Shown piece after piece: positions 3,443 through 52,307 of a DNA stretch of 64,000 bases (within the stretch, counting starts at the first letter, position 1; each line of letters opens with the position of its first letter). The translations under genes and the position numbers were made by a program. The stretch comes from Clostridia bacterium. Lineage in GTDB: Bacteria > Bacillota > Clostridia > Oscillospirales > CAG-382. Below the pieces are notes generated by a model, which saw nothing but the letters and a program-made list of their open reading frames with translations, did not search any database and was not told the origin of the DNA. The DNA is taken from contig JAFYKY010000012.1 of NCBI GenBank assembly GCA_017537345.1, positions 134,665-198,664 on the forward strand, read 5' to 3'.

Positions 3443-3458
3443 AAATACAATTATTGGC

Positions 3459-3585
3459 GGGACGATAGGGATATCGTCCCCTACGATTATCGAATAGCCG
3501 TGGCTGTTCGCAGACCGTAGGGGACGATGTCCCCACCTGCACCCCACAAAACCTGCGGTTTTGCGGGGAACCCCGCCGTCGTCCC
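3459..3585. repeat. REPIN-like inverted REP doublet; right REP has an H2 module nested in its loop
   Basis: Left REP is GGGACGATA-ggga-TATCGTCCC followed by CTAC (3459-3484). 32-nt linker GATTATCGAATAGCCGTGGCTGTTCGCAGACC. Right REP is GTAG (3517-3520) followed by GGGACGA ... CGTCGTCCC (to 3585), with an inverted H2 at 3539-3574 inside. The same doublet and linker occur at 52205-52288. Confidence 0.85.
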
Positions 3586-7227: not shown

Positions 7228-7255
7228 TTGAATTTATGCAAAAATGTGCTATAAT
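7228..7255 (+). promoter_or_regulatory. strong extended -10 promoter driving the large ncRNA
   Basis: TTGAAT (7228-7233), 16 nt, TGcTATAAT (TG 7247-7248, -10 at 7250-7255). No ORF or RBS follows. Confidence 0.65.
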
Positions 7256-7261
7256 AAATGA

Positions 7262-7882
7262 GCGATGGCGCAGTATTCTAGTTAGCGCGGCGTTTTTGAA
7301 GGCGTGCCTAAAAATACGTCAAACGGCAAATCGATGAAGCTCCTGGTGTTTGCTTTGTACGCCCAGTTCAGGGTGGATGCTGGGAGAGTGGACTGTGGGC
7401 GCACCCCAACGGCATGGGGCGGCTACCCCACTTTCCTTTGAGGCTTTTTCTTCGTGGCGGACCTACACAAACAAAAAAAGGGGGCTACGGGATTAAGATT
7501 AAACCTATCACGCGGTACGACCATTACAGATGCTGTGGATAGATGTAGCCGGCTTTGAGTGGGTCATGGCGGATAACGTTCATGTCGGGGTGAGATTAGC
7601 TACCGAACCCCGAATAAATCGCGTTTGAAATCATGCCTGCAAAAGAAGATAAGAAAACGTTTTGCGCTATGGCGGAAAACGCCTAGACTGTTATCGTGGC
7701 AGATAAACACGTATGGGCACGGTGCGGATTACAGTGCGGACTCATAGGCAATCAAGTCGCGGAACCGGTAACGCTCCGCCTCGGTCTTTAATGGGGAACC
7801 CCTTCATCGGCGACGAGAAGGAGACCGCGGGGAAATCCTACTTGACCGTAAGCCGCAAGGTCTACGTACCGTGCCGCCATTA
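7262..7882 (+). ncRNA. large structured ncRNA, probable OLE (ornate, large, extremophilic) RNA
   Basis: About 620 nt directly after a strong promoter. The only ORF of 60 aa or more is 7713-7916 (67 aa, no RBS). Visibly more G+C-rich than the AT-rich 7100-7255 region. Helices: ATGGCG 7265-7270 / CGCCAT 7875-7880; GGCACGGT 7716-7723 / ACCGTGCC 7868-7875; CGGGGT 7586-7591 / ACCCCG 7607-7612; GCGGA 7759-7763 / TCCGC 7775-7779; CCTCGGTC 7779-7786 / GACCGCGG 7823-7830. Synteny with the oapA-like/dxs/tlyA/nadK/argR/recN cluster. Class not verifiable without a covariance-model search. Confidence 0.55.
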
Positions 7883-7883
7883 T

Positions 7884-7990
7884 TATTCACCCCACAAAAG
7901 GTTTTTTGGCGAGTAGGGGCGTTTCACGAAACGCCCGCAACAGACAAAACATATCACGAAAAAACGCTTTTGCGGGGACCCCGAAAATAT
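7884..7990 (+). repeat. composite element X: inverted H2 hairpin split by an insert carrying a REP variant
   Basis: H2 arms CCCCACAAAAGG (7890-7901) and GCTTTTGCGGGG (7966-7977). Inside is GTAG followed by GGGCGTTTC/GAAACGCCC (7913-7938). A ~90 percent identical copy lies in reverse orientation at 42020-42125. Confidence 0.85.
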
Positions 7991-8227
7991 CAAACAGACA
8001 GTGGGAGCGCGTTCATTCGGCGCAGAAGACACCCCACAAAACTTGCGTTTTGCGGGGACCCCGTGAACCAAAAACGCAAAAACACACTCAAATGTTTCGA
8101 AAACCGTAGGGGACGACGTCCTCGTCGTCCCGCACACCACAAAACATACGGTTTTGCAGGGAACCCCGAAAATATCAAACAGACAGTGGGAACGCATTTT
8201 AGGGGTGGGTTCCTCATTCCTCATTAA
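7991..8227. repeat. REP/H2 mosaic (BIME-like)
   Basis: REP GTAG GGGACGACG-tcct-CGTCGTCCC (8106-8133). Inverted H2 copies at 8032-8057 and 8134-8168. 28-nt direct repeat CCCCGAAAATATCAAACAGACAGTGGGA at 7979-8006 and 8164-8191. Terminal heptamers TTCCTCA TTCCTCA then TTAA (8210-8227). Confidence 0.85.
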
Positions 8228-8241
8228 AAACGGTGGTAAAT

Positions 8242-8706
8242 ATGGTAAAAAACATTTTAAAATATTCCCTGTTTGGATTGACGGCGTCTTTTGCTTTTGC
8301 GGCTTTTACGATCTATCTGCTTGAGCCGAGAGAAAAACTTATCTCGGAACTGCCTAGGTATTGGCAGGTCATCTGGTTGGTGTTGCTTAATATCGTGGGA
8401 ATCTTTTCTCATTTCGCCGCAAGATTTAGCATTCCCCTTGTTGCCCGCGTATCAAAAAAATACAAAAAAGCACCCGTTATATTTTTGGCGGTGTTTGTAG
8501 TTATCGTGTTTGTTCTTTCCGGCGGAAAATACGGCGCCAGACACGGAAGAGGACTGTTTTTTATAATGCACGAAACGGCGGGCATAACTTCGGTTGCCGC
8601 GCTTGATATTATTTTGTTTTTCTTCATAATGCTGATCTCATATTTCGTTATTTGTGTTGTTACGGAATTCAAAAAAACGGAAAAAACAAAAAATGACAAA
8701 CAATAA
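8242..8706 (+). CDS. small polytopic membrane protein (about 4 TM), function unknown
   Basis: ORF 8233-8706. ATG at 8242 is preferred (GGTGG 5 nt upstream). Hydrophobic helices throughout. The 3' end overlaps the RAYT start by 14 nt. Confidence 0.5.
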   Translation: MVKNILKYSLFGLTASFAFAAFTIYLLEPREKLISELPRYWQVIWLVLLNIVGIFSHFAARFSIPLVARVSKKYKKAPVIFLAVFVVIVFVLSGGKYGARHGRGLFFIMHETAGITSVAALDIILFFFIMLISYFVICVVTEFKKTEKTKNDKQ

Positions 8707-9370
8707 ACCACCCCTCCCCAAACGTAAAAACACCCGCTGGGACAAGCAGGACTACTCCCACCCCGGCGAATATATGATAACTGTCTGCACAAAGGATATG
8801 AAACAGATATTATCGAGAATAACCGCCGGTAACCCGCAAACCGTAGGGGACGATATCCCTATCGTCCCGCACCACGTAAACGCACAAACCGTAGGGGACG
8901 ACGTCCTCGTCGTTCCGCACCCCACAAAACCTGCGGTTTTGCAGGGAACCCCGACCGTCCCGCATATCGAACTCACATATTTCGGAAAAATTGCGGATAA
9001 ATATATAAACCAATTAAACGATTTCTACGATAACATCAACGTAATAAAATACGTTATAATGCCGAATCATATACATTTGCTGTTGCAGATACCGGACGGG
9101 ACGACGAGGACGTCGTCCCCTACGAAAACAACTGACGGAACTAAGTGCGAAATCACGCCGTCCCCTATGGGTGAGCGAACAGACGCACGACCCGTTGAAC
9201 ATTCGATAATATCGGATTTTATTTCAACTTTCAAACGTTTCGTTCACCGCGATATCGGCGAGCAGATTTTTCAGCGCTCATATCACGATCACGTTATACG
9301 GGACGAAAACGATATGATCGGGGCTATAAATTATATAGAAAATAATCCACACAGATGGATAGAAAATTAA
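8693..9370 (+). CDS. REP-associated tyrosine transposase (RAYT; IS200/IS605 TnpA-like Y1 HUH enzyme) with in-frame REP insertions
   Basis: Start at ATG 8693 (MTNNKPPLPKRKNTRWDKQDYSHPGEYMITVCTKD). HUH motif VIMPNHIHLLLQ. C-terminal QRSYHDHVIRDENDMIGAINYIENNPHRW. Segments VGDDIPIVP, VGDDVLVVPHPTKPAVLQGTP and GTTRTSSPT are translated repeat hairpins. Confidence 0.8.
   Translation: MTNNKPPLPKRKNTRWDKQDYSHPGEYMITVCTKDMKQILSRITAGNPQTVGDDIPIVPHHVNAQTVGDDVLVVPHPTKPAVLQGTPTVPHIELTYFGKIADKYINQLNDFYDNINVIKYVIMPNHIHLLLQIPDGTTRTSSPTKTTDGTKCEITPSPMGERTDARPVEHSIISDFISTFKRFVHRDIGEQIFQRSYHDHVIRDENDMIGAINYIENNPHRWIEN
8843..8963 (+). repeat. two tandem REPs plus inverted H2 module inside the RAYT coding frame
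   Basis: GTAG GGGACGATA-tccc-TATCGTCCC (8843-8870). GTAG GGGACGACG-tcct-CGTCGTTCC (8891-8918). CACCCCACAAAACCTGCGGTTTTGCAGGGAACCCCG (8918-8953). Partial stem ACCGTCCCGC (8954-8963). Confidence 0.85.
9096..9124 (-). repeat. inverted REP inside the RAYT coding frame
   Basis: GGGACGACG-agga-CGTCGTCCC followed by CTAC (9098-9123). 27 nt identical to the reverse complement of the intergenic REP at 8106-8133. Confidence 0.85.
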
Positions 9371-9372
9371 AT

Positions 9373-9520
9373 TGTGAAGAGAGAAAAGAGAAGAGTGGAA
9401 AGAAACGGAAGATTTTTGCGTAATACGCAAAAATCAACCATAATTCCCGGGGTTCCCCGAAAACGCTGTGCGTTTTTGGGGTGGGTCATTCATCATTCCT
9501 CATTCCTCGTTCCTCATTTA
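9373..9520 (+). repeat. modular repeat (purine heptamers + module A + H2 + pyrimidine heptamers)
   Basis: GTGAAGA GAGAAAA GAGAAGA GTGGAAA GAAACGG (9374-9408). GATTTTTGCG-taata-CGCAAAAATC then AACCAT. CCCCGAAAACGC-tgt-GCGTTTTTGGGG. TCATTCA TCATTCC TCATTCC TCGTTCC TCATTTA (9486-9520). Near-identical copy at 15653-15795. Confidence 0.85.
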
Positions 9521-15652: not shown

Positions 15653-15795
15653 GTGAAGAGAGAAAAGAGAAGAGTGAAAAGAAACGGAAGATTTTTGCGT
15701 ATTACGCAAAAATCAACCATCCCGGGGTTCCCCGCAAAACCGCAGGTTTTGTGGGGTGGGTCATTCATCATTCATCATTCCTCATTCCTCATTAA
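15653..15795 (+). repeat. modular repeat (same composite as 9373-9520)
   Basis: GTGAAGA GAGAAAA GAGAAGA GTGAAAA GAAACGG. GATTTTTGCG-tatta-CGCAAAAATC then AACCAT. CCCCGCAAAACC-gca-GGTTTTGTGGGG. TCATTCA x2, TCATTCC x2. Ends in TTAA (15792-15795). Confidence 0.85.
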
Positions 15796-41924: not shown

Positions 41925-42125
41925 TTAACGATGAACGATGAACGATAAACGATGAACTTCGGAAGCTTTTTGCACGGCTGTGCAAAAAGCAACCATTAGT
42001 TCATAGTTTATAGTTCATAGTTTTTTTCGGGGTCCCCGAGAAAGCGTTTTTTCGTGATATGTTTCGTCTATTGCGGGCGATTCGTGAATCGCCCCTACTC
42101 ATCAAAAAACCTTTCTTGGGGTGAA
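41925..42125. repeat. compound repeat inside the ymcA-mutS intergenic region
   Basis: TTAACGATG AACGATG AACGATA AACGATG AACTTCG. TTCGGAAGCTTTTTGCAC-ggct-GTGCAAAAAGCAACCATT (41958-41997). AGTTCAT AGTTTAT AGTTCAT. Then element X in reverse (42020-42125) with REP variant GGGCGATTC/GAATCGCCC followed by CTAC (42075-42098). Confidence 0.85.
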
Positions 42126-52110: not shown

Positions 52111-52204
52111 CCATATCCCGCTCGCGAAAGACCTTTTCTACAGCGTTTTACCTTCGCTCTCGCTCGGTCATCGAATAGACGATAGTGTAGTGCGAACAAA
52201 TTAC

Positions 52205-52288
52205 GGGACGATGAGGACATCGTCCCCTACGATTATCGAATAGCCGTGGCTGTTTGCAGACCGTAGGGGACGTCGTCCCCGACGTCCC
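52205..52288. repeat. REPIN-like inverted REP doublet
   Basis: GGGACGATG-agga-CATCGTCCC followed by CTAC (52205-52230). The same 32-nt linker as 3485-3516 with 1 substitution. GTAG GGGACGTCG-tccc-CGACGTCCC (52263-52288). Confidence 0.85.
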
Positions 52289-52307
52289 GTAACAAAATAA
52301 AAATGTA

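Follow-up and report, generated by a model that had tools for sequence, protein, structure and literature searches.

A conserved, outward-facing pair of REP hairpins surrounds the HUH codons of a RAYT gene in Oscillospirales

We describe a gene for a REP-associated tyrosine transposase (RAYT, or TnpAREP) that carries, within its own reading frame, copies of the repetitive extragenic palindrome (REP) found elsewhere in its genome. The gene lies in a 64,000-nucleotide (nt) stretch of a Clostridia bacterium of the order Oscillospirales (contig JAFYKY010000012.1, positions 134,665 to 198,664), which is called the window throughout. A forward hairpin with a GTAG foot stands before the codons of the HUH motif (site 1), and an inverted hairpin stands after them (site 2). 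That REPs occur in frame in subclass 2.4 tnpAREP genes has already been published (Quentin, Siguier, Chandler, Fichant 2018; PMC6006769); what is new is a conserved, covarying pair with its feet pointing outward around the HUH motif, which changes together across ~70 gut-bacterial species. The same paper mentions an unexplained insertion of 8 amino acids (aa) before the HUH motif and reports neither the pair nor covariation, and in the literature we found no description of a conserved forward and inverted pair or of its covariation. On balance, we favor the explanation that the REPs are resident members of the genome's REP population, maintained as DNA sequence within two permissive loops of the protein and most likely recognized by the enzyme like other REPs.

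Conservation of the pair across homologues

We took 79 homologous loci from species-representative genomes, all of them metagenome-assembled genomes of gut Clostridia and mostly Oscillospirales. At the DNA level, 82 homologous genes were counted, drawn from 78 Oscillospirales/Clostridia genome loci and the window, 79 sources in all. The forward GTAG hairpin before the HUH codons and the inverted one after them occur together in 71 of these 82 genes; seven others have site 1 only, two have site 2 only and two have neither. The position and the frame are fixed wherever both arms are recognizable. The spacing of the arms is ~158–170 nt in most genes and longer in genes with inserts; the two arms of the window (8890–8917 and 9097–9124) are separated by a gap of 179 nt.

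At the protein level, all 39 aligned homologues keep at least one VGxxxxxxP before the HUH motif, including minimal proteins of 163–165 aa at ~40% identity. The counterpart after the motif, GxxRTxxPT, is kept in most of the 39 and missing from one subclade (P0028–P0032 and P0034), and the two peptides covary as reverse-complement translations. In the members of this subclade, and at locus L008, the post-HUH arm is gone and an inverted REP-like peptide, RGVEAPPPT, is encoded ~60–80 nt upstream of the forward copy.

The pattern of conservation is that of a nucleic acid. Site 1 opens with the codons GTA-GGG in every one of 65 genes and closes with CCG in 58 of 65, where background use in the same genes is 26% for GTA, 16% for GGG and 27% for CCG. 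The stems vary by genome (GACGACG, GGCGACG, ACAGGCG, GTCGACG, ACACCCG, GACGATG and others), with 90.5% of stem cells paired and 14 of 18 pairs changed on both sides. None of 500 shuffles reaches the observed pairing, and slid controls give 34–55%. A fixed mismatch is seen at stem position 7, which fails to pair in 52 of 63 sequences; imperfect hairpins with a mismatch are typical of transposase recognition. It is the nucleotide sequence, not the peptide, that is under selection or maintenance. Conservation applies to the REP hairpin as a DNA element, made up of the GTAG foot, a stem of 9 bp with the mismatch at its position 7, and a loop of 4 nt. It applies neither to the peptide nor to strict complementarity of one arm to the other.

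A first-pass annotation, made from the letters of the window alone, had read these segments as REPs and had weighed the possibility of ordinary coding sequence conserved for its amino acids. The alignment of homologues goes the other way, because the segments are kept at the nucleotide level and their hairpin potential is retained through compensatory changes. The in-frame segments are true members of the genome's GTAG-REP family and of a second dispersed family, H2, that accompanies it.

Two departures from the usual arrangement were seen among the homologues. The site 1 hairpins of L068 (10117–10143) and L072 (3267–3293) have the same stem as their relatives and the reverse complement of the usual loop, which suggests that the hairpin was flipped in place by template switching or by inversion within the palindrome. 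The C-termini of P0012 and P0022 and the N-terminus of P0027 read into flanking H2/REP modules, with extensions such as PQNLRFCGDP and PPHKTCGFAGNP, so that repeat arrays at the ends of the gene can become coding too.

Relation of the intragenic arms to extragenic REPs

The density of GTAG hairpins in 1.1 Mb of flanking sequence is 0.079 per kb, and in the gene it is ~45 times higher. Extragenic REPs of 27 nt resemble the intragenic arms of the same genome most closely, and 13 of 50 are identical to them. The mean distance from extragenic to intragenic copies is 4.3 within a genome and 7.1 to other genomes, a difference matched in none of 2000 permutations.

At two loci, L005 and L034, the arms belong to different REP variants. 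In L005, identical extragenic copies exist for each of the two variants. In L034, they exist for the site 2 variant only, and the nearest extragenic relative of the site 1 arm is a related variant. Together with the invariant GTAG foot, these arm variants indicate that what is conserved is the REP hairpin, and that the two arms can pair with each other because they belong to one REP family.

The RAYT gene and its product

The reading frame was taken to start at ATG 8693, where the orthologues begin with MTNNKPP; the gene-finding tool offered a longer option with GTG at 8654. The protein matches the Pfam Y1_Tnp profile and the NCBIfam REP_Tyr_transpos profile below their cutoffs (20.4 bits versus 23, and 54.1 bits versus 80), the latter being an equivalog model of the Escherichia coli type. 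These matches are weak and split because the REP and H2 inserts interrupt the domain, and precomputed PF01797 matches are present in insert-poor homologues. The database holds 1392 homologues, which range from 163 to 265 aa among the 120 listed.

The assignment to a family is drawn from motifs and from predicted structure. The subclass 2.4 motifs are NH[IFV]H and YIxNNP (Table 1 of PMC6006769). PNHIH at residues 124–128 fits the first, with H126 and H128 invariant in an alignment of 40 sequences, and YIENNP at residues 214–219 fits the second, with Y214, N218 and P219 invariant. In the E. coli TnpAREP, the GTAG foot is contacted by Q95, E100, H101 and R104 (PMC6006769); the candidate counterparts Q194, D199, H200 and R203 have the same spacing, by which alone the numbering was mapped, and are invariant or nearly so among the homologues. 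At the WQ motif of most homologues the window protein has FQ. The top Foldseek match of the AlphaFold model is 4ER8_A (E = 2.2e-05), the E. coli RAYT bound to a REP hairpin and the best match among solved structures, followed by the TnpA proteins of ISDra2, IS608 and IS200. The subclass is also defined by association with REPs, namely GT[AG]G-footed REPs within ~1 kb and a REP in the beta3-alphaC loop. The window has REPs at 7913 and 8106, within 0.8 kb upstream, and an inverted REP in the loop after the HUH strand. We therefore classify the gene, by its motifs, as a Y1/HUH RAYT of TnpAREP subclass 2.4, for which cleavage and joining of single-stranded DNA (ssDNA) at REPs is a predicted activity. 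The first-pass annotation had reached the same family from the motifs, and the fold match and the sub-threshold profile matches bear it out. A second RAYT was looked for in the window and none was found.

The ratio of nonsynonymous to synonymous substitution rates (dN/dS) between the window gene and its orthologues is 0.10–0.34, which shows purifying selection. With the fold match to 4ER8, this indicates a functional gene.

In the AlphaFold model the core is confident, and the REP-encoded residues 48–87 and 137–167 have a predicted local distance difference test (pLDDT) score below 50. Residues 48–87 lie between the two strands of a beta-hairpin before the HUH motif, and residues 137–167 lie between the HUH strand and the following helix. 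Both REP regions are thus modeled as permissive surface loops, in agreement with the published subclass 2.4 model and with the possibility, raised in the first-pass annotation, that such inserts fall in loops.

Repeats of the window and recent expansion at site 1

The features are listed in Table 1. A search of the whole 64 kb with the 30-nt pattern GTAGGGGACGACGTCCTCGTCGTCCCGCAC, allowing up to three mismatches, gave three matches where none is expected by chance: 8106(+), which is intergenic, and 8891(+) and 9123(-), which are intragenic. A hairpin scan added a diverged REP, GTAGGGGACGATATCCCTATCGTCCCG, starting at 8843(+), whose stem is GACGATA; a copy outside the gene, at 3484(-), matches it over 28 nt without a difference. 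The inverted arm at 9097–9124 is complementary to 8105–8132 at 28 of 28 positions and to its intragenic partner at 8890–8917 at 27 of 28 (96%). The REP and H2 at 8886–8954 are 94% identical over 69 nt to the intergenic segment 8101–8169. The first-pass annotation had placed the REPs correctly to within 1–2 nt. Its three in-frame GTAG hairpins and one H2 module are confirmed, each with an identical or near-identical extragenic twin, and the inverted-repeat complementarity upholds its description of the forward and inverted copies as a REPIN-like pair around the HUH codons.

Table 1. Coordinates of the RAYT gene, its in-frame repeats and their twins in the window
Feature	Position	Strand	Basis or relation
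RAYT / TnpAREP (subclass 2.4-type) coding sequence, 225 aa, intact	8693..9370	+	Open reading frame (ORF), profile matches, homologues, Foldseek, dN/dS
Forward REP copy 1: GTAG foot, 9-bp stem, 4-nt loop; reads VGDDIPIVP; basal site 1, beta-hairpin tip	8843..8869	+	Sole REP at site 1 in syntenic L080
Linker like 5' half of H2 (CACCACGTAAACGCACAAACC)	8870..8890	+	82% complementary to inverted H2 9467–9483; within the 93-nt block absent from L080
Forward REP copy 2, reads VGDDVLVVP; partner of inverted copy	8891..8917	+	1 mismatch to 8106–8135; 96% complementary to 9097–9124
H2 hairpin module in frame (HPTKPAVLQGTP), second dispersed repeat family	8918..8954	+	97% identical to copies at 15723, 21281, 53611
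CGTCCCG, direct repeat of 3' end of REP copy 1 (8863–8869); the two bound the 93-nt extra block	8957..8963	+	Alignment with syntenic L080
HUH-motif codons (N125 H126 I127 H128), between both REP arms	9065..9076	+	H126, H128 invariant
Inverted REP, site 2; + strand reads GTTRTSSPT; loop between HUH strand and next helix	9097..9123	-	28/28 versus 8105–8132; 100% kept in L080, L082, L083
Partial inverted REP remnant (ACGCCGTCCCCTATGG) in ~48-nt block variable among orthologues	9155..9170	-	88% complementarity
Catalytic tyrosine motif codons YIENNP (Y214)	9332..9349	+	Y214, N218, P219 invariant
Extragenic twin of REP copy 1	3458..3484	-	28-nt identity
Extragenic REP+H2 composite upstream, twin of 8891–8954	8106..8169	+	94% over 69 nt
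Inverted H2 module immediately downstream of RAYT gene	9448..9483	-	Inverted-repeat comparison and H2 census

The syntenic orthologues share the gene order DUF4434 gene, small membrane ORF, RAYT, CNNM-like ORF and dxs. Site 1 holds one REP in L080 and one REP with H2 in L083. In L082, which shares only the upstream membrane ORF and lies on a short contig, it holds a REP, H2, a spacer and a third REP variant, and in the window it holds a REP, the half-H2 linker, a second REP and H2. Compared with L080, 93 nt are added in the window, and a direct repeat of CGTCCCG borders the added block. After site 2, blocks of 45–48 nt have likewise been gained or lost among the orthologues, and all of these insertions and deletions at site 1 and after site 2 are multiples of three. 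The site 2 arm is 100% identical in the four sequences (window, L080, L082 and L083) despite synonymous divergence (dS) of 0.16–0.44.

The second forward REP of the window and its H2 are thus a recent local expansion of an array like the bacterial interspersed mosaic elements (BIMEs). Such an expansion would survive because its length is a multiple of three and it avoids the one of the three frames that is closed by the TAG within GTAG. Insertion of REPs by the enzyme into its own gene, one of the meanings offered in the first-pass annotation, can accordingly be a recent event for the second forward copy and H2, which syntenic orthologues lack. It does not extend to the pair as a whole, because the basal pair is old, being present in 71 of the 82 homologous genes.

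H2 is a dispersed repeat of ~35 nt (CACCCCACAAAAC...GTTTTGCGGGGAACCCCG), with 10 copies in the window versus 0.33 expected: 3369, 3558, 7967, 8047, 8151, 8936, 9448(-), 15723(-), 21281(-) and 53611(-). It often adjoins REPs, and its reverse strand scores as terminator-like. A second REP family with a shorter stem, GTAGGGGCG[T/A]TTCACGAA[A/T]CGCCCG, is present at 7913–7937(+) and 42074–42098(-) and resembles a double-foot palindrome found inside subclass 2.4 genes of the broader family; no second RAYT that could serve as its partner was found in the window. At 52204–52289, two REPs are arranged head-to-head with inward-pointing feet that are 32 nt apart, an orientation opposite to that of the intragenic pair, and a terminator-like GTAGGA hairpin at 52305 adjoins it.

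Possible explanations for the conserved pair

The explanation that we consider the most probable can be set out as follows. The forward REP at the beta-hairpin tip and the inverted REP in the post-HUH loop, with GTAG feet outward, make up an intragenic dimer whose spacer codes for the HUH motif. The pair would be ancestral to an Oscillospirales clade and would evolve in concert with each genome's extragenic REPs. The RAYT, and recombination, would most likely treat the intragenic copies as any REP, and the ribosome would translate across the hairpins, giving loops in which almost any sequence is tolerated. Binding and cleavage of these sites by the RAYT, homogenization of the copies and any regulatory consequence are steps that we infer.

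Several observations weigh against this explanation. The genes with a single arm (seven with site 1 only and two with site 2 only) represent lineages that lost the other, so the pair is not indispensable. Most homologous loci have no matching extragenic REP within 10 kb, and genome-wide maintenance by exchange with the extragenic pool is therefore something that we infer. The arms are predicted to form a very stable duplex of 28–29 bp with each other, which may have a regulatory role as RNA or DNA. Action of the RAYT on its own intragenic sites is a prediction from sequence comparison.

The arrangement described here bears on what RAYTs do and on how they co-evolve with REP and REPIN populations. 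Since the presumed substrate is present twice, in fixed places, within the gene of the enzyme itself, one short contig is enough to read off a cognate pair of enzyme and substrate, and covariation between residues and stems can be analyzed at scale without complete genomes. The pair also indicates that intragenic REPs are not always passive insertions, because here they have been held at the DNA level over long evolutionary times. Even if functionless, it is a clean case of concerted repeat-family evolution reaching into coding sequence.

A more specific proposal, akin to the autoregulation that the first-pass annotation had listed as a possible meaning, is that the feet-outward dimer is a functional cis element that allows the RAYT to sense or limit itself. 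Either the enzyme would act on its own gene, by binding or nicking it, or a 28-bp duplex would form in the mRNA, and RAYT output would be coupled to the state of the REP population. We regard this as unlikely, although if it were true, enzyme-substrate specificity could be deduced straight from the sequences of thousands of metagenomic genes, each of which carries its cognate substrate.

Less likely again is autoregulation by structure. In this scenario the arms pair, in mRNA or in transient ssDNA, into a duplex of 28–29 bp around the HUH codons, which limits translation or draws a double-strand-specific RNase; a harmful nuclease would be kept at a low level, and the pair would have been selected for this reason. 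The predicted minimum free energy (MFE) fold of the single strand indeed contains such a long-range duplex, closing the HUH-coding loop, both in the window segment (z = -8.8) and in a minimal homologue (z = -12.0). The arms are complementary in 95.4% of cells, including the positions of the hairpin mismatch, and 48 of 63 pairs differ at no more than two positions (no difference in 15 pairs, one in 20, two in 13 and three to six in 15). However, a long duplex requires neither palindromic arms nor an invariant GTAG foot, yet both are strictly kept. Differences between the arms are tolerated at up to 6 of 27 positions; most of them (52) fall in the loop, whose last position is unpaired between arms in 25 of 63 sequences. 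Differences in the stems are mostly compensated within their own arm and not between arms, with 19 compensated pairs versus 8 single changes. Finally, the broader family has only the compact site 2 palindrome and no partner before the HUH motif.

It is improbable, in our estimation, that the hairpins are neutral passengers, that is, REPs that landed in permissive loops, as the literature suggests for subclass 2.4, and that persist there harmlessly with neither maintenance nor function. The low-confidence loops, the variation of copy number among close relatives and the absence of one arm from some lineages are what would be expected of passengers. At 35–45% protein identity, however, an unconstrained 27-mer would be randomized, whereas GTAGGG is invariant, synonymous codons are fixed and stems are compensated; in addition, the arms vary from genome to genome along with the extragenic REPs. 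These properties require an active process, which could be either selection or continuing conversion.

The first-pass annotation also raised the possibility that the gene is the source of the REP family. The intragenic dimer would then be a master copy from which the extragenic REP and REPIN elements were copied. We judge this quite improbable, and for the dimer as a whole the idea is weakened. It is true that several genomes have extragenic copies identical to the arms, and that the pair is present even where there is no extragenic copy within 10 kb. Feet-outward extragenic dimers with identical arms were found in L037, L040 and L057, but the sequence between their arms bears no relation to the HUH-coding spacer, and the spacer of the window is not repeated elsewhere in the window except for its H2 part. 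A search of the window for an extragenic copy of the whole dimer, HUH spacer included, gave none. The arm variants of L005 and L034 look like exchange with a pool rather than one-way copying.

A function of VGxxxxxxP and GxxRTxxPT at the protein level, with palindromy as a secondary matter, is very improbable, as is a pseudogene or assembly artefact: V51, G52 and P90 are invariant, but the residues between them change radically (DD, TG, GG, VD, TP) while always preserving base pairing, codon choice is fixed, the regions are predicted to be disordered, and the ORF is intact in independent assemblies and under purifying selection, which also disposes of the frameshifted pseudogene considered in the first-pass annotation.

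Two further candidates were rejected. Phase-variable inversion of the HUH segment was considered for six loci missed by the motif pattern; these have variant residues (AIMPDH, IIMPNH, VIMLNH) in the normal orientation. As for a known RNA family behind the hairpins or H2, Rfam gave only the OLE RNA upstream, described below, and one sub-threshold match.

Comparison with known systems

The closest published relatives are the tnpAREP genes of subclass 2.4, or Bertels Group 4 (Quentin et al. 2018; PMC6006769). They share with the window gene the NH[IFV]H and YIxNNP motifs, REPs with a GTAG foot, and a REP between the HuH motif and the Y motif, in a beta3-alphaC loop of variable length, that leaves the frame unbroken. 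The Oscillospirales clade differs by the addition of a forward REP before the HUH motif, which gives a split, feet-outward dimer with a coding spacer of ~135 nt, and the window protein differs by having FQ in place of WQ. A broad-family search was made with a query sequence typical of that family, which recovered real proteins at ~75% identity from many phyla. The forward REP peptide before the HUH motif is absent from 120 of 120 proteins examined in this set, and nearly all of the 120 carry RGGSRTAPT or a close variant after it. In two members from other phyla, the DNA that codes for the post-HUH peptide is the double-foot palindrome of the literature, GTAGGGGCGGTTCGCGAACCGCCCCTAC, or a variant with one mismatch. 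The near-universal post-HUH peptide and the absence of the forward copy indicate that the site 2 REP characterizes the subclass as a whole, and that the site 1 copy and the split dimer are special to the Oscillospirales clade. In two broad-family loci from other phyla, L084 (7167–12122) and L085 (2762–13693), the RAYT gene lies inside a type I restriction-modification operon; in one locus it stands between hsdR and hsdS, and in the other it adjoins hsdM, hsdS and hsdR.

The E. coli REPtron (TnpAREP YafM, 4ER8) has the same fold, and a GTAG foot with an imperfect hairpin is likewise its presumed recognition unit. Its REPs and linker modules form arrays, and the REP and H2 arrays of the window resemble BIMEs. 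It differs in that its REPs flank the gene rather than lying inside the reading frame, and in belonging to subclass 2.2 and not 2.4.

REPINs, described by Bertels and Rainey, are inverted REP doublets that are replicated as a unit; they are also mentioned in PMC6006769. The intragenic pair resembles them in consisting of two inverted REPs able to fold as one long hairpin, conserved here in 71 of 82 genes, and in having extragenic dimers with the same arms and orientation in related genomes. It differs in that the spacer is protein-coding and essential, since it encodes the HUH motif, and in that the doublet with its spacer does not occur in multiple copies. The pair has the geometry of a REPIN and no sign of copying as a unit.

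The TnpA proteins of IS200/IS605 elements recognize subterminal imperfect hairpins on ssDNA. They share the HUH/Y1 fold with the RAYT, but their hairpins share one strand and flank the gene, whereas here the hairpins are on opposite strands and inside the gene, of which there is a single copy in the window.

Palindromic repeats in frame are known from other settings. In-frame REPs have been listed in many unrelated genes, in a study that also recalls the Rickettsia palindromic elements, or RPEs (Di Nocera et al. 2013; PMC3733652). Like the RPEs and the intragenic GTAG/CGTC REPs, the repeats of the RAYT gene are short palindromes tolerated in frame, presumably in loops. The former are scattered in unrelated genes, whereas here the repeats occupy conserved sites in the gene of the cognate enzyme and co-evolve clade-wide. 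The RPE pattern, in which a repeat is absent from orthologues and the frame is kept, is seen for the 93-nt block relative to L080 but not for the basal pair.

Genomic neighborhood

A full-length OLE (Ornate Large Extremophilic) RNA lies upstream at 7249–7896(+), with an Rfam score of 385 bits versus a gathering score of 50, and a promoter-like site is present at 7228–7255. Downstream of the OLE RNA are the REP/H2 array, a membrane ORF of 157 aa (8233–8706), the RAYT gene, the CNNM-like ORF and dxs. The RAYT gene is therefore within the classical ole-oapA-dxs neighborhood and is probably co-transcribed with it. A general linkage between RAYT and OLE RNA was considered and rejected, because it was seen only in the closest relative, L001, and not at six other loci tested. 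The membrane ORF overlaps the RAYT gene by 14 nt and is OapA-like by position alone, having no Pfam match. A GGGGTGGGT...TTCCTCATTCCTCATT motif is repeated at 8196–8225 and 9470–9518, just 5' of where the membrane ORF and the CNNM-like ORF start.

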